This document shows positions 37,596 through 47,978 of a stretch of DNA of 64,000 nucleotides, piece by piece. Every line of letters begins with the position of its first letter. The first letter of the stretch is position 1. The stretch is from Pseudogymnoascus verrucosus. Lineage: Eukaryota. The notes below the pieces were generated by a model. It did not search any database. It was not told the origin of the DNA and saw nothing but the letters and a program-made list of their open reading frames with translations. The position numbers and the translations under genes are program-made. The stretch is taken from NCBI GenBank assembly GCA_001662655.1, contig KV460245.1; one strand, 5' to 3'.

Positions 37596-37698
37596 GGGAG
37601 TCTGGCCGAGTGGTTAAGGCGCTGTGTTTAGGTCATCCGCAAGGAAACCTTGATTCCCGCAGTGGGAAACCGCGCAGGTTCGAATCCTGCGGCTCTCA
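37596..37698 (+). tRNA. tRNA-Leu(TAG) with a 24-nt intron (37633-37656)
   Basis: Acceptor GGGAGTC/GGCTCTC-A, A-box TGGCCGAGTGGTTAAGGC, anticodon stem CTGTG/CGCAG with TAG at 37629-37631, variable arm GG-GAAA-CC, B-box GGTTCGAATCC. Confidence 0.93.
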
Positions 37699-38022: not shown

Positions 38023-39562
38023 CTATGCACTCTTGGCCTCCTCATCCTTTCTATCCTGCTCAGCCTTAACATCTGCGGCATGTCCCTCCTCATAACCCTC
38101 TGTCTTGATATCATTCAATCCCAAGTCCTCTTCCTCCTCCGCAGTCCTTTCGTACTCCTCCGAGGTAATCTGAGGATCATCATCGGGGCTGCAGAGATTC
38201 TGGACGTAGCTGCTTGCGAGAGGATCGCTCAGGATAACTGTGAACTTTACTTCGCCCTTGATTGCAGCGTCGATGCCATCAAAGAACTTAGTCCAGCTCT
38301 CTTGCTGGGTAGTTTGCAATGAATCCCCCCCAGCGTCGCCGACATCAAAGATCTGATTCTTAAGGTCGTCGCGGATCTGTGTCAGAAGGCCCTCAACCGT
38401 TGTGAATCGTCCTCCGAGCGTTCCGGGGTTGACGGATAACTTGAGCTCCGGGCATTCAAGGGCGCAAGACTCAGACTTCAGAATGTCTCTGGCCAGGTCA
38501 ATCTCGCTCTCAACCTTCAGCGTGATTTTCTTTCCCTTCTCTGGAACTTCACCGCCGGTCTTAACTTCGTTGGAGCGATAGCCGCATAGGTCGCAGACAG
38601 TCGACATGATAACAACTTGCTTGAAATGGGGAATTTCCACCATCTTCATGTGGGTAGTGCAATGCTTGGTGCACCCAGGACATGTTGCTGGGAAAGAGTA
38701 GACCTCGTTGGGGATAATATCATCATCTTCCATTGCGGCAGCTGCACCCCCGGCCGCATTATTCTCCTCATTGGAACCATCACCCAAACCAAGCGCCTCA
38801 TTCTGCTCTGGCGTTCTAGGATACTCTGTGCGTAGCAGTTTTCCAACACCATCTGTTTGATCTGGCTCAATCAATGAATTCCCGGAGGGGTCATCCAGAG
38901 AGACGCGGAAGGGGAATGCCACCCCGTCCAGCATCTTTCGTCCCTTGACAAGAATCGCCTCGACAGCGGTATAGACCTCTGGCTGTTGCTCTTTTCTTGC
39001 CTTCTGGCCAACCTCCAGATCTTCCAAAATCATGCTTAACAATCCCTCAACGTTGCTGAGTTGTCCGCGGCCGGCGGGTACCTCGACGTCCAACTCGATA
39101 AACTTCACCACGCACGTATCGCTCTTGACAACTTGACGGGCAAAGTCTGCCAGGGAAGTGAGTCGCAACTCGCAGTGGATACCCTTCTGTTGAATTTCGC
39201 CGGCGGACTGAATCTCGGAGTTTTTGAAACTGCAGTGCGGGCAGTTGAAGGACATAATGATGATTTCGCGGAAGAAAGGGATTCGAGTGAGGAGAAGTCG
39301 AGTGATACCCTATCGCAATAATATTAGAAATATTCATGACATTCAGCAATAAGAAGATACATACATTTGCGTGGCAGTTCATGCACAGACTCTCGATCTC
39401 GTCCACAACCTTCTGGTCCTCTTCCTCTTCCACGGCGGGAGTCGCATCTGTCGCATCCTTGGCCTTGGAGGAGTTTACTTGCTCAGCCTTCGACCCGATG
39501 CTGTCGAAGAAGTCATCGAAAGCCTTGCCATCCGGCTTGGGGTTACTCTCTGGAGAAGACAT
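38023..39562 (-). CDS. ZPR1: Zinc finger protein Zpr1 (eEF1A chaperone)
   Basis: Two C4 zinc fingers (CMNC..CPHC; CPGC..CDLC), IPFFREII, GGRFTTVEGLL; intron 39310-39364. Confidence 0.95.
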
Positions 39563-39830
39563 ATTGATGGTTTGTTGTTTTGAAAATTATATGATTGCTG
39601 ACGAAGAGAGAGCGTTTTGGCGGCGGGGTTCCACAAAATTTTCTGTGACGTTGTGGCGAGGCTGAGCCTTTTGGTTTGTTACCCCGCGCTAGGGCTCCAC
39701 CGACGTCCACCAATGTCCACCAACGTCCACCAACTGGACAGTGCCTGGCGCCAGGCCAAGCTGGGTGGTGAACTGAATCGGTGAAGTGCAATGGCTGGTA
39801 ACTGGCTTATAACGTAACATAAAGTGGCCC

Positions 39831-40454
39831 TTAACCATTGTTCATAAGATCCATAAGATCCAAACCAAAGCCACTGCTTGAGTTTTGTGAGGCTTCCTTG
39901 TTTTTGGCCAACAAGGCTTGCAGACCTCCCTGCTTCCGGCTCTTCGCTCTCTTTCTGCTGCTAGCATTCGCTGACGGCGTTGTCGGAGTTGCAGCTTGCG
40001 ATTCGGAGGCGCTGGTAAGGCGCTCTGGGGCTTCCCCTGAGGTTAGGTTTGACTGTTCTGCGCGACGAGAGGCTATCCGTGGGAGAGCTGTTGTAGTGAT
40101 AACTTGGCGAGTCTCACGTTTGCAACGGTCACAGGTGTAGACCATGGAACGCTCTGCTGCCTGGGTGATAGCACTTGCCTTCCTCTTGCGAGTTTGCCGA
40201 CTCCTAGGTGGGCGCTGCACCTCATTCTTGACCGTGCTGGTCCATCCTGGGGTCATTATGTTACCGCAACCACCGCATACATGCCTTCGGTGAGAGTCGG
40301 ACTGGTTGATATCGTTTGAGAACATTAATAGGTTACATCTCGACATGAGGTGCGATGAAGAGCCAGGTGCTGAAAATGCCATTAGATGAGCCGCGTCGGT
40401 CAAATATTTCAGCTGTGCTGACAAGGCTCCCGCAGCCCCCGGATCTTGAGCCAT
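39831..40454 (-). CDS. RNase P/MRP subunit, Rpr2/Rpp21/Snm1 family
   Basis: LKYLTDAAHL, RRHVCGGCGNIMTPG, YTCDRC zinc ribbon, basic C-terminus. Confidence 0.8.
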   Translation of the reverse strand: MAQDPGAAGALSAQLKYLTDAAHLMAFSAPGSSSHLMSRCNLLMFSNDINQSDSHRRHVCGGCGNIMTPGWTSTVKNEVQRPPRSRQTRKRKASAITQAAERSMVYTCDRCKRETRQVITTTALPRIASRRAEQSNLTSGEAPERLTSASESQAATPTTPSANASSRKRAKSRKQGGLQALLAKNKEASQNSSSGFGLDLMDLMNNG

Positions 40455-40827
40455 CTTCCTTTAAATCCTCGGCTTATGATGCGCGGTTTGAAGGTTTGTG
40501 CAGGGGCAGGATTGAAGTTTCGGTCAATCAAGCCAAGCTTTTATATTTCTTCAGCCTCGCAGGAACAATGGTCACGTGAACGTACGTGTCTCGGACGAAG
40601 GTTAATTGAAGCTACATAAACATGCATTTGGTTTGCTTGAAGAATTGTATAGATGAAAAATAGCTTCTCCAATATTGGTTAAGATAGGACCGAGCATAAT
40701 CTCGAAAATTAGGTCCACTTGAGTAAAAATTGGGTTTGTGACGTCTCGTGAAGTTTGGTCAGCCTTGCGCGAGCTTGAATCCTCATCCGCCGTTTTAATC
40801 CACCAGGCATTCCCAAGATACTTTGCT

Positions 40828-42626
40828 ATGGATAACTCTCTGCAAGATATACATGGCCTAAGGGTTGCCGTGGAAGGCTGTGTAAGCTTACAGAAACTCC
40901 AGCCTTTGCTAAAACTAACTTAATCGCAGGGCCATGGCACATTGAATGCCATCTACGCCGCAACAGAGAAGGCCTGCGAGGAGAGGGGCTGGCCAAATGT
41001 TGACTTGTTGATCATTGGGGGAGATTTCCAGGTTAATATTCCGATTTAGCTTATCTGTAATTGATCTGACAAGTCTAGGCTGTTCGAAATGTCCTCGACC
41101 TGACTGTCATGTCAGTCCCCGCTAGATTTCGGGAACTGGGCGACTTCCACGAATACTACAGCGGCATTCGCAAAGCCCCTTATCTGACAATATTCGTTGG
41201 AGGCAATCATGAAGCAAGTAGTCATTTGTGGGAACTTTACTATGGTGGCTGGGTGGCACCGAACATCTATTATATGGGAGCCGCCAACGTGATGCGACTC
41301 GGCCCTTTGCGCATATCAGGTATGTCTGGGATATGGAAGGGGTACAACTACAACAAGAGTCACCACGAGCGGTTGCCATATAACCAAGATGATATCAAGT
41401 CTATATATCATATCCGAGAGCTGGATGTTCGGAAACTATTGCAAGTACGGACACAAGTTGATATCGGTATCAGCCACGATTGGCCGAGAGCAATCGAGAA
41501 TCATGGCAATGCTAAAGCTCTATGGAGAATGAAACCAGATTTTGAGAAAGAATCTAGAGATGGGACGCTTGGTAGCCAGGCTGCTACATATGTTCTTGAC
41601 CGACTACGTCCCCCGTATTGGTTCGCGGCGCATATGCATTGCAAATTTGCTGCGACCAAGATCTACAAGGACGAGACTGCAGATTCTACGCCACAAACAA
41701 TCGCAACACCAGCAGCTGCGGCCACTGATAATATCGTCCCAACCGCAACAAAGAATGAAGAAGAGATAGACCTCGACATGGACGATGACGACGAGCCTCC
41801 TGCACCCGCACCAAAACCAGAAGTGGCCCCAGCTACCACAAAGCCTACCGACTCCATTTCCGACGACCTCCGTGCCCTCCTCCCTGCATCATTTTCCCGC
41901 CCTGCTCCCTCTTCTCGCTTGCCGCCTGGCCAACCAGTCCCCGAAACCATTTTCAATAGCACCGTCCGCTTCCTCGCTCTCGACAAATGCCTCCCAGGCC
42001 GCAAATTCCTCCAATTACTCGAAGTTTCGGCCTCCTCGCCTCCAGCGCCGAATTATCCCCCTCTATCCGCCGAGAGCGGCGCTGATGGATCTACCGGGGC
42101 GTCTGGCTGGCCTCGGTACCATTTATCGTACGACCCAGAGTGGCTCGCCATCACACGGGCCTTCTCACCGTCATTGGTCCTCGGTGATCGTGATGCTCGG
42201 CCGCCTTCTGATTTAGGCGAAGAAAAATACAGGGAGCTTATCAAGGCAGAAGAGGTGTGGGTTGAAGAGAACATCGTTAAGAAGGGGAAGCTACAGGTGC
42301 CCGAGAATTTCGTCATCACGGCGCCAGTGCAAGATGGTGTCCCTCCAACGCTTAATATCAGTGAGCAGCCGAAGGAATATAATAACCCCCAGATGGTGGC
42401 GTATTGTGAGTTGTTGGGAATCGAAAATAAGTTCTTTGCGACGGATGAGGAAAAGGAGGCGAGGGCCGCAAAAGGGCCGGCGCCTGCAGAAGTGAGGAGG
42501 GATGGGTTTGGTGGCGGGAGAGGTGGAGGCGGTGGACGTAGAGGTGGTCGAGGGAGAGGCGGTGGATTTGGTGGGAATAGAGGTAGAGGAGGTGATGGTG
42601 GCAGGGGGAGAGGGAGGGGCTATTGA
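40828..42626 (+). CDS. DBR1: RNA lariat debranching enzyme
   Basis: VAVEGC | GHG, IGGDFQ | AVRN, GGNHEAS, YGGWVAPNIYY, SHDWP, WFAAHMH, FLALDKCLP; introns 40882-40929 and 41032-41078. Confidence 0.95.
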
Positions 42627-43102
42627 GAAGAGAGATCATGGGTTTTTTGGAGGAGGAAATACAATGCCATCAAGGATGTAAGTGTATGGCAAAAGCACCA
42701 GCTTTACTTTACTGTAGCTAGCTTAGAATATACCCCAACTAATAAAGCCGAGGCTATTGCATAGCTACGACTTCAACTTTGCTTTGGGACGTATATGTTC
42801 TGCCATCAGCTATGCACATCCGACTCATGTAAGGCTCAGTGGGATGCAATGTTGTGATGGGTGTATGTACATTCTATATCCTCATCGTGCAACCTGGAAA
42901 TATATCTCCAACCCGTTGCAGCACAAGGTCTCTAAAACATATCTCGCCTATCTATCATTTGAAGTTGCCATAAATCTATTTGAATATAGCAAAGAAATAT
43001 ATCCCCAGCAAGAAAAGTCCAGGCCCCGTAGAAATCGTAGGGCCGGCCAGAAAAGAGGGACCGGATTTTATAATTTTTTATAATTATCCGTACTCAATGT
43101 AC

Positions 43103-43455
43103 CATCATCTTTAGACGTCAACCTCAAGGAGAGAGTTAGGAGAACGCATATGCTCAGATGGGATGTTTTGTGGACATAAGTCCAGCTTGGTTCGCCTCAT
43201 TCGGCGATAACAGACACATGATCGGGAGATGTGCGAATGGTTGTAAAGTATTGTTCATTGAATCTATTTGTAAGGTAGTAAAAAAGACAGAAATGGAAAG
43301 GAATGTATCCCCTGGAATAAGGTCCTTCTTCTATACTCGGCTTTCTGCAAGCCTGGAAGAGAACAGAATTAGAGGGAGTTATGTTTCTTCCATCATCTAT
43401 AGACGTTCATGCTCATGGAAGAGTGGAGAAGAACGCATATGCTCAAATGGATGTC
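43103..43455. repeat. Degenerate ~65-bp direct repeat pair, 288 bp apart
   Basis: CATCATCT(T/A)TAGACGT...AGAACGCATATGCTCA(G/A)ATGG at ~43103-43168 and ~43391-43455. Confidence 0.6.
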
Positions 43456-43671
43456 GAGCACCAAGCTCGTACACTTCATCTCACCCCGTAAAACATACCA
43501 GAATTTTGAAATTGTACTTGTATTAATAGTCGTCTGTAGTACAGTTGCGTCCTACTTCTCGGACGGTTTATGCGCCATGGCAACCTGTCGAACGCCAGCC
43601 TCCATCCCAGATGCTCCAGCCCGCCATCTATCGTATATCATTACATGAGGTCATTAGAAGTAATGGCTGGT

Positions 43672-44368
43672 TCAAGCTGCAACAACACGTTAGCTGATAA
43701 GATAATTCGAGGGGACATGAAGACTCACTGTCCAGATAATCCGCCGCCATCAGCAGCTCCAAACACAACTCTGGAGGAATATGCATATCCTTCACCCCAT
43801 CCCTATCCCGATTGACGTAGTTATAGTAAAAGTACTCTGCGACCTTCTCAAGGACTATGCCACTGTAGTAACCAACAACCGTCAGCATCTGCCTCTATCG
43901 ATCCCACAACCCACGCACTCGCACAAGGGCAGGTGGCAGAAAAGGCCTCAGATCAAGTGTAATGGCATCTCATCCAGCCCCCATAATCCTCATCCTCCGT
44001 GCGAGGCAGAAAGAGGGTCTGTAAGAGCTCAAATAGCTTCTTCATCACCGACCCGACAGTCTCCTCACCCACCTTACTCCAGCAGCACAAACGTAGGGTA
44101 TTTACCTGATTTCCTCAAACACGCATCTATTCTTCACGCTCTCCTCAAATCCACCTGCCCGCCGTCAGTCCGTTCCCAGTGTCTTGTATAGCAAAAAAAA
44201 GCAACGCAACGCGTGCGTGTGTGGTGGACTGGACCTACTCTTCGGATCCAGCATCCGGCGAATGGCGCCGCTGATGCAGGCAGCCTCGCGGAGAACGACG
44301 AACTCGAAGCCGTCGTAGCTCACCAGCGTCACCCATCTGCTCAGCTGCTTTTCGCTCGAGTCTGCCAT
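43672..44368 (-). CDS. ELC1: Elongin C
   Basis: VTLVSYDGFEFVV, SGAIRRML, VLEKVAEYFYY, IPPELCLELLMAADYL; introns 44155-44238, 43863-44105 and 43677-43728. Confidence 0.95.
43943..44055 (-). ncRNA. Intronic box C/D guide RNA, predicted to target U2 snRNA
   Basis: C box GTGATGA (44048-44042), D box CTGA (43951-43948), terminal stem GGGTC/GGCCT. Guide ATTACACTTGAT is complementary to U2 AUCAAGUGUAGU. Lies in the oversized ELC1 intron 2. Confidence 0.82.
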
Positions 44369-44635
44369 TTTTCTTGTCCTGTGGCTTTGGGGGGTTGGAG
44401 GTGCGAAGGGAGTGGAATTCTCTGCGTGTGGGAGCTTGGAGGTTGATGTGGGGATGTTCCAAGAGGCTTGGTATTAGGTTGGTGAGGAGCCTAGCGGCCG
44501 CGTTGATTTGATGTCACGTGAATGTTTCTGATATTGGGCCACAGCAACGACTTCCATCGGCCATCATATATATATCTTGAATTAAGGGACTATTATCCGG
44601 TCTTGATATCATTCTGAAGTTGAGAATTTATAATC

Positions 44636-45696
44636 ATGCCCCGCCCCGTCATCACCCGCCAAGGAACTAGGTTCTACCGGTCTCTGAGAAAGGCATTTTC
44701 ATCTGTGGGAACTGACAAAACCCCTATTAAGCATGTTATTATCACCGGAGCTTCGGGTGGAATTGGCAGAGCCATAGCATCACGTTTTGCATCAGAGGGC
44801 GCAAAATGCACTCTGATTGGGCGAACGGAGTCAAAGCTTCAAGCATCCCTCAGGGAGCTATCAACTCTGAGAGACCACCGGATTGTGGTTGGAGATGTGG
44901 GAAAAGAGGCATTTTGGAAAGATCTCGCAAAGAAAATGGTAAGTGACAAGGAATGAGCAGATGGAATATAGCGCTGATGCAATATAGAAGGAGGATAAGG
45001 ACCATTGCGATGTTCTGGTTAATGCAGCGGGAATAACGCACTATTCGCTGTTGGTCCGGACGCCGGCGGCGACAGTGGATGAGGTTATTGATACGAATCT
45101 GAGAGGCACCATTTTGGGATGCCAGCATATGATCAAGGACATGATGAGGAAGAAGACAGGCACGTTCAAGTCATGTGCTTCGCAGAGCCCCTCATACTAA
45201 CGGGATTATGTGACAGGCTGTATTATCAACATCGCATCTCTACTCGGAGTCAAGGGTGGCAGAGGAAGCTCTGTTTATGCTGCTTCAAAGGCAGGGGTTT
45301 TAGGTAAGTCACCACCCAGCGAATGTCATTGCCAAACTATTCTAACATTTCCAGGATTCACAAGAGCTCTAGCCGCAGAAGCAGGGCCATCAGGCGTCCG
45401 CGTAAACGCCGTTGTGCCCGGCTACATAGAAACCGAGATGACATCAGGTACGAGCAATTATTCTTCATTAATTCTTAAGTTATCCTCCTCCTACAGGCGG
45501 GGTATATCTGACTACCAGTGGCTAATATACATATCCAGGCATGGAGCCTGCCCTTTTTGAGTCCACTAAGAACGCCATACCCCTGCAACGTTTCGGTACC
45601 GCCGAAGAGGTTGCTGATGCCGCTTTCTTCCTAGCCGCTAACCAGTATGCCAATAACTGCACCCTCAACCTTGATGGAGGTCTGAGTGCGGTATGA
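44636..45696 (+). CDS. SDR, 3-oxoacyl-[ACP] reductase-like (probably mitochondrial, OAR1/CBR4-like)
   Basis: Arg-rich presequence, TGASGGIG, VNAAG, YAASK, RVNAVVPGYIET; introns 44939-44987, 45160-45216 (GC-AG), 45304-45354 and 45448-45538. Confidence 0.88.
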
Positions 45697-45767
45697 ATAA
45701 GCCAGGCTCGCCATGTGCTGGGAGATGCTGGAACACGTCTCAATAATCACCAATATTGACGTGTGGT

Positions 45768-47978
45768 TCAGTCATCATCAATGATGATGGCGCCGTCGTC
45801 CGCGCTGTCTAAAACGATAATATCATCCTCTGCCTCCTTGAGCTTCCCACGCTTGGCTTCAGGGCCGGCTTCTCCAAGCTCATCTGCCCCTCTCTTCGTC
45901 CCTGCCACCGGACCAGGAGAGGCTTTAGGCGCCTCACCGTTGGTGATGGCCTCTTTATTCCCGACATCACCATTCGTGGCTTCAGTTGGGGGTGGAACCA
46001 CCCGTGGCCGTCTGGGTATGGAAATCGGCTGCTCGCTATCGACGGCTGTGGGGAGTGCGCTAATTGGCTTTGCGTCAGTCGGCGTTGCAGTCCCCTGAAC
46101 GCTGAGAACAAGGTTGACTCTCGGGTCCTCTTCATCCTCGTCAATGACTGTGAGGAAGCTGTCCTCCTTGATTCCGAGCTCGCTCAGTTTCTTCTCGAGG
46201 TTTTCAGTCTCATCCACATCGTACAGCAAGCCTGCTTCATTGCTGACCACGAACTCTTCGCCATATCCGAGCTGGACGCGCAAGAAGTCCTCTACCAGAT
46301 CATTCAGCGTAGCCCTTGATAAGTCTACTAGGAGCCTGGTTTGCGCAACACTACAAACGGGACAGTCTGGATTTGGTTTCCGGGTCTTCTCATAGGCCAT
46401 GAGGCGCTCGGATGCGAAAGGTGATAGGAAGATTTCTTTTGTGCTCGAGTAATCGCCACGGAGGACTTTGAAGGATTGCAATACGCAGAGACCTGCGACA
46501 ATTGCATTTGTTGTGGCAATAGCCGGAATAATGTTGCCCGCCATTTGCTTGGTATCAAATCGAGACTTGGTCTCGATCCCGAAGATGATGGATCGGATAT
46601 TCGCGGTAGCGGTGACAAAGTCGAGGGTATCTTCGTCATCCTTGTCAAATATAATTGTTGGCTCTGCGGAGTTTCCATCGGACGCGGCCTTCAGCTCCTT
46701 CATGCGTTTACTTAGACGATTTAAACTATACATGTTAGTCTTGTAGATAGGACTGGTGTTGAATGTATACATACCTGTCTTTGAAGACAATCAAATTTTC
46801 TTCCAGAGACCAAGGCTTCTGATCATTTTTAAGAACCGCTTCTTTTGACTCCTCCAGAGGTGTGGCGGCAGCAGCCACAGTGTCATACTCCAGTGGATCT
46901 GGCTTCCTCCTTGTCGTCCACATCTCCTCCATCGACCTCAGCCGTGTGATATCCTCATTGAACACCTTATTGAAGAGTAGTTTTGGAAAGTCGTCAGTGC
47001 CCATAGAATCTCTAATATTTTTCAATGCCTGAGCCTCCTGTCGTAGCTTCTCGATCTCCTTCGCATTCTCCGAGTCCTGTGAATGGTCCATCTCCTCGGA
47101 GTCTATCTCCGTGGCTCCAAACACCTCACTCAACAGGTAGCTCTTGCCCCAAACAATACAGTGTATCGGCTGACTGGGTGTACTCCTGATTGTGCATACT
47201 GGGTAGCTCTTGGGTGTAACTTTCGCGGTGCAGTCGTAGCATGCAGTGATTCCCTTTTTGATGACCTGCACTTGACCATTGAAACCCGTGGTTCCACTCT
47301 CGATCAGCGGTACATCAGCCGCAAGGCACATTTTGTTAACATGGCGGCGGGCATCAAGGTTATCGAGCGCATTGAAGACGATAGTAAAGGTTTTGAACCA
47401 GTCGATGTTGAACTGGGCATCTTTGATATTGGCGTGGTATGATTCGAGTTTGACAGCTGGATTAAACCTTTGCGCAACCTCCTTCGCAACCTAGAGTCAC
47501 AGTTAGCAGTGCTTTTAAAACGGATAGACCAGAGGCGGGGGAGACGAACCAGAGCTTTGGACTTTTTGATGTGCTCATGACGGAAGAGGAACTGGCGGTT
47601 CAGGTTGCTGAGGTCGATGGTATCAAGGTCCACGATGTGTATTTCGCCATAACCGGTGAGGAGTAGGTTCTTGAGAAGCTCGCAGCCGATGCCTCCGGCT
47701 CCTACCATCAGGATTCGTGCCTATAGTTGGGATATCAGCCTGGTTCGTTGCAGGGTAACAGGAAGGGTCCATGATGGCTCAAGCAGGCGCATGTCGCATC
47801 ATTCGCAAAGATTGCGCAGTGAGAAGTACAGGCCAGAGGCTGCACTCACTCAATACACTCCCTAAAGGCCAAGACGACTCTGTTGGTCATGAAGAATAGA
47901 GAAGGCTCGGCTTACCTGCTTGACATCATTATTCAAGGGCTTACCCAGCGCCTGCTGGTTGTAATGGTCGCGGGCCAT
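45768..47978 (-). CDS. UBA2: SUMO-activating enzyme E1 subunit Uba2
   Basis: [24 protein letters not shown], catalytic [28 protein letters not shown]; introns 47721-47915, 47491-47549 and 46726-46774. Confidence 0.95.

Follow-up and report, generated by a model that had tools for sequence, protein, structure and literature searches.

The second intron of the elongin C gene (ELC1) of Pseudogymnoascus verrucosus hosts a box C/D guide RNA that is very probably the local ortholog of Neurospora crassa CD29, a single-function guide with predicted methylation of A31 in U2 snRNA. The RNA pairs with the organism's own U2, orthologous ELC1 introns conserve it, and the methylation has been mapped in N. 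crassa, all of which supports its identity as an intronic box C/D guide for the equivalent of human U2 A30. The guide RNA is real but belongs to the published CD29 family, and in that respect it is largely ordinary. The window, i.e., the whole 64,000-nt stretch of contig KV460245.1 (assembly GCA_001662655.1) that was analyzed, contains the following features:

43670..44368, minus strand: ELC1 (elongin C) gene with four exons, from intron structure, RNA contigs and PDB matches
43863..44105, minus strand: 243-nt intron 2 of ELC1, which hosts the RNA and is skipped exactly in X1 and X4 RNA contigs
43946..44053, minus strand: box C/D snoRNA, very likely ortholog of N. crassa CD29, with approximate ends from the 13-homolog model and an adapter-flanked insert
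44042..44048, minus strand: box C GTGATGA, fixed in homologs by the search pattern
44026..44041, minus strand: D' guide region, in which the 5.8S-A43 guide of CD29 is lost, with no supported target
44022..44025, minus strand: probable box D' CTTA, placed by homology
44016..44021, minus strand: CAGACC, 5' arm of the internal D'/C' stem, pairing with 43980-43975
43970..43980, minus strand: internal-stem 3' arm at 43980-43975 followed by the box C' core GATGA at 43974-43970, conserved, outside the search pattern
43952..43963, minus strand: D guide, pairing with U2 over 12 bp and placing D+5 on U2 A31 (human A30)
43948..43951, minus strand: box D CTGA
43881..43886, minus strand: branch-point motif GCTGAC, 65 nt 3' of box D, compared with homologs

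ELC1 contains introns of 84, 243 and 52 nt (introns 1, 2 and 3, respectively), and RNA contigs from the related runs X1 and X4 lack stretches of exactly these lengths (52, 243 and 84 nt) at this locus, evidence that covers 4 of the 24 listed runs; the length given for intron 2 in the initial annotation was thus reproduced to the nucleotide. The host had also been correctly recognized as elongin C, with exons 1 and 3 matching PDB elongin C chains (best E-values of 4e-4 and 2e-6, respectively). The RNA lies 57 nt from the 5' splice site and 65 nt from the branch point, and both distances resemble those in the homologs, in which a branch-point motif is positioned 55-84 nt past box D in 12 of 13 cases (those where one was found). 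Around ELC1, window positions 38026-47490 form a dense housekeeping run that comprises ZPR1, RPR2/Rpp21, DBR1, a short-chain dehydrogenase and a ThiF-family E1 subunit. DBR1 is the convergent neighbor of ELC1 (PF05011), as had been pointed out together with its role in releasing intronic snoRNAs. The enzyme works on lariats in trans, and a piece of its gene falls inside the 1.2-kb flank at 1 of the 15 ELC1 loci, the flanks being too short for the others. The neighborhood is real, but nothing in the data points to a functional tie with the RNA.

Boxes C and D sit near the ends of the RNA, as in the box C/D class, with 101 nt from C to D, and both boxes and the guide were found exactly where they had been proposed. 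The internal D'/C' motif of the class is present as a conserved stem and C' core; the candidate C' box GGATGA is in place at 43975-43970, its GATGA core being the conserved part. The proposed D' box needed revision. CAGA is present at 44021-44018 and is a plausible motif in the window sequence alone, but by homology it was set aside in favor of CTTA, probably the true D', four bases away, with CAGACC forming a stem arm. This choice follows from the ELC1-hosted homologs L078 and L098, in which a box at the same place puts D'+5 on 5.8S A43; the D' of CD29 directly precedes the same CAGACC element. The closing stem claimed initially does exist in the window RNA, but the flanks of the homologs do not show it consistently. 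RNA folding was no better than for shuffled sequences (z -0.82), a result that says little for a C/D RNA.

Three U2 matches were identified in the P. verrucosus genome with Rfam, all of which contain the target segment. The D guide forms 12 contiguous pairs, one of them G-U, with each of the three copies, which upheld the pairing predicted from a conserved U2 segment. For two copies the D+5 position is A31 of the Rfam match and for the third it is A32, and the expected equivalent of human A30 was thereby recovered. The third copy (L003:1501-1703, plus strand; G000:C3) differs in stem I and in the 3' half and keeps the target segment. The duplex can be extended past a 3-nt bulge to -18.3 kcal/mol, and the 12 bp with the organism's own U2 compare with the at least 10 bp of antisense at D or D', with the target at +5, that characterize the class. 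Across both strands of the window, 12 contiguous U2 pairs occur at only 1 of 478 CTGA sites; a C box lies 40-140 nt upstream at 7 of the 478, and the next best among these reaches 7 U2 pairs. With U6 as target, the guide RNA forms at most 5 bp, and U5 was not found in our search of the genome.

A search pattern consisting of the C box, 65-95 nt, the guide and the D box was matched in at least 113 metagenome stretches. ELC1 exons are present on 15 of the 113 matches listed. These represent 14 distinct sequences, and in all of them the RNA is in sense orientation and occupies one and the same place in the intron, so the conservation check suggested at the outset came out positive. Because this set was chosen by its boxes and guide, their invariance in the homologs is no evidence, and what follows concerns sequence outside the pattern. 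Base D-11 is a C, which pairs with U2, in 15 of 15 ELC1-hosted versus 18 of 65 unassigned sequences among the matches listed. In 12 of 14 rows the internal stem reaches 5-6 of its 6 pairs, and L078 and L098 (2 of 13 homologs) show compensatory changes; the script took the best-pairing 6-mer, failed on L005, returned 3 pairs for L013 and gave a doubtful stem for L023. In the relative X20, the 132 nt of intron flank show 12 substitutions and the 111 nt of the RNA at most 2 (Fisher p 0.024), counted among the rows listed. A model built on 13 ELC1-hosted homologs, with two near-duplicates of L058 dropped and the window left out, finds the window at 43946-44048 with 27.4 bits (E 1.8e-7), and gives at most 19.1 bits on Afu-191-type loci.

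CD29 of N. crassa (EU780953) is a 101-nt intronic RNA cloned from cDNA. The guide at its D box accounts for U2-Am31 and the one at D' for 5.8S-Am42; low-dNTP primer extension was used to map the two marks (Liu et al., 2009; PMC2780460). CD29 and the ELC1 family show the same order of D', CAGACC arm, loop, GGNCTG arm, degenerate C', short spacer and U2 guide, a comparison that was made by eye and is unscored. The window RNA shares with CD29 the intronic location, the length of about 100 nt and the D guide for U2-Am31, as well as, again by eye, the internal stem after D' and the degenerate C'. It differs in having lost the 5.8S-Am42 guide at D', where there is no contiguous pairing, and in the single G-U of its U2 duplex. 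The host is ELC1 for the window RNA, whereas the available text of PMC2780460 gives the location of CD29 as 'Intron' on chromosome II without a name for the host gene. Two of the 13 ELC1-hosted homologs (L078 and L098) carry a 14-bp guide with D'+5 on 5.8S A43 (proxy 5.8S from L132) in addition to the U2 guide, which ties the two functions of CD29 to the ELC1 intron. Among the papers listed in our literature searches, none names elongin C as the host gene.

The Rfam check recommended initially was negative for the window RNA: at gathering level, Rfam reports only a tRNA in the window, and the vertebrate family snoU2-30 (RF00493) scores 17.3 against a gathering threshold of 60 bits, a weak match over the boxes and guide. 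Nor did any of the three ELC1-hosted homologs tried match an Rfam family. The anticodon loop of the tRNA gene (37596-37698, plus strand) is interrupted by an insertion that is probably an intron. Human SCARNA9 (mgU2-19/30) has the same target, U2 Am30 (PMC7960923), but the window RNA stays below the gathering score of snoU2-30 and no G19 guide was seen in it. The available text of PMC5733568 does not mention A30.

At least three families among the 113 matches listed have this guide (15 ELC1-hosted, 23 of Afu-191 type and 10 of a third type), and the guide alone thus does not define orthology. It would be compatible with this, and with the available text of Canzler et al. (2018; PMC5824354), in which the double-guide snoStrip family CD_29 is given only for Glomerellales and Neurospora, that the U2-A31 guide in ELC1 belongs to a separate, unpublished family sharing nothing but the guide with CD29. 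We regard this as very unlikely, since L078 and L098, both hosted in ELC1, repeat the internal stem, the C' and the D' guide for 5.8S A43 that CD29 has, and cognates of CD29 in other filamentous fungi are described as retaining only the U2 guide (Liu et al., 2009; PMC2780460), which is the state of the window RNA. Nor does it seem credible that the element has decayed or fallen silent, or that its motif arose by chance. The guide has a G-U wobble where homologs show G-C, and the D' guide of the RNA is eroded, as might be expected of such an element, but the 12-pair U2 guide is unique in the window, the element is conserved at the orthologous ELC1 intron position with fewer changes than its flanks in the close relative X20, and an exact-pattern search of the genome found no other intact guide with a C box.

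A further alternative concerns the D' region, which might have switched to the 5' region of 25S rRNA and thereby kept the RNA a dual guide. The rRNA genes of P. verrucosus were searched for and are absent from its assembly, and for this reason we used proxy rDNA contigs from prokaryote assemblies (L129-L175; 47 contigs with eukaryotic 5.8S rDNA, evidently contamination). Against 12 of these 47, the best run of the D guide is 10 bp (L151), all others being 8 bp or less, and the D' region pairs over 6-9 bp with one exception of 12. The D' region forms 9 bp with a conserved 25S stretch and 12 bp with a variant found in 1 of the 22 proxy contigs that cover this stretch. A run of 9 bp measured on proxy rDNA is, however, short and near chance expectation, and the 25S pairing is absent from all 13 homologs; we consider such a switch highly improbable.

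The caution in the initial annotation that U2 guides might already be catalogued in other fungi was justified not only by CD29 but also by Aspergillus fumigatus Afu-191 (AM921920; RF01499; CD_35), whose listed targets are Gm75 in 5.8S and Am32 in U2 (PMC2377427). Afu-191 is a predicted guide for the same U2 adenosine, likewise from the D box, but it differs from the window RNA in locus, in flanking genes and in its D' guide for 5.8S Gm75. The window RNA has no Rfam match to Afu_191, and a model of 17 family members gives it 13.7 bits, confined to the 3' part. The Afu-191 type, with the 5.8S-G75 guide and the same U2 guide, accounts for 23 of the 113 matches listed, and one of four such loci tried passed the Rfam Afu_191 threshold (64.6 versus 60 bits). 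P. verrucosus has its own intronic Afu-191 ortholog (L120:1439-1536, minus strand; G000:C1), the best of 6 pattern matches by eye, whose flanking reading frames on both sides match those of Afu-191-type loci. It scores 24.5 bits in Rfam, below gathering, which is why annotation missed it, and 28.2 bits on the 17-member model. Its 5.8S-Gm75 guide is intact, and its U2 guide is mismatched at D-2 to D-4 (duplex of -7.3 kcal/mol).

Several other loci carry a guide for this U2 site. A third candidate box C/D family makes up 10 of the 113 matches listed (L009, L021, L022, L024, L035, L040, L080, L090, L095 and L106). Its members have a U2-A30 guide and a terminal stem, lie in no evident intron and share flanking genes that include a TPR protein, presumably SGT2-like. 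The conserved D' element of this family found no target in proxy rDNA (best 9 nt), and the two members tried had no Rfam match. Short C/D units arranged in tandem occur in L033, L075 and L115, and every unit terminates in a guide of the U2-A30 type; two of these loci were tried and had no gathering-level Rfam match. Within the P. verrucosus genome, a second exact match to guide and D box (C5, L118) has no C box upstream and was missed by both models. Since the U2 guide of L120 is eroded and this other exact match has no C box, P. verrucosus probably has no U2-A31 guide besides the ELC1 RNA, as judged by exact patterns and the Rfam family, which a more divergent guide could escape. We moderately favor a broader scheme in which the U2-A30/31 mark is kept and its guide is handed between families. 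These would be at least two intronic 5.8S-plus-U2 families (Afu-191 with G75 and CD29 with A43) and the third candidate, with the tasks split in P. verrucosus, so that L120 would serve only 5.8S and the ELC1 RNA only U2, the ELC1 intron being the sole source of U2-Am31 and possibly, via a METTL4-like enzyme, of m6Am. Such a split between CD29-type and Afu-191-type guides was not found in our literature searches.

Transcripts offer a hint on processing. One X1 record with adapter-like ends spans 43947-44087, starting 39 nt before box C and ending 1 nt past box D, as a single contig. In X3, one contig with intron 1 spliced enters intron 2 and stops at 43969, with no coverage beyond; as contigs cannot show RNA ends, nothing is inferred from this stop. 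For N. crassa, the RNA has been obtained as a cDNA clone and U2-Am31 methylation has been mapped, and by analogy the ELC1 pre-mRNA would carry the guide RNA when transcribed and would release it from intron 2 by splicing, debranching of the lariat and exonucleolytic trimming, followed by assembly with the C/D core proteins Snu13, Nop56, Nop58 and fibrillarin into a snoRNP, as expected from the family. The D guide would then pair with U2 just upstream of the branch-recognition sequence, and fibrillarin would 2'-O-methylate A31 at D+5, the RNA presumably acting as a single-function guide whose 5.8S guide at D' has decayed. The sole MT-A70 locus found in the genome (L178:1129-2619, minus strand; G000:C29) has an intact DPPW motif and is METTL4-like, being closest to PDB 7CV6, which we take to be Arabidopsis METTL4. 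On this basis, m6Am at the guided U2 adenosine through this putative METTL4-like enzyme is possible. Human Am30 is a prerequisite for METTL4-made m6Am30, a relationship reported to be conserved in S. pombe (PMC7960923).

What this analysis adds is the host gene, ELC1, for a published family for which Rfam yielded no match, together with the apparent split of tasks with Afu-191. Deleting ELC1 in these fungi would probably take a guide for U2 modification with it. Should the split of tasks be true, a single intron deletion would abolish U2-Am31 and leave 5.8S untouched, and would thus provide a clean fungal test of the Am30-type mark, a prerequisite of m6Am30 whose direct role in splicing is unsettled (PMC7960923).
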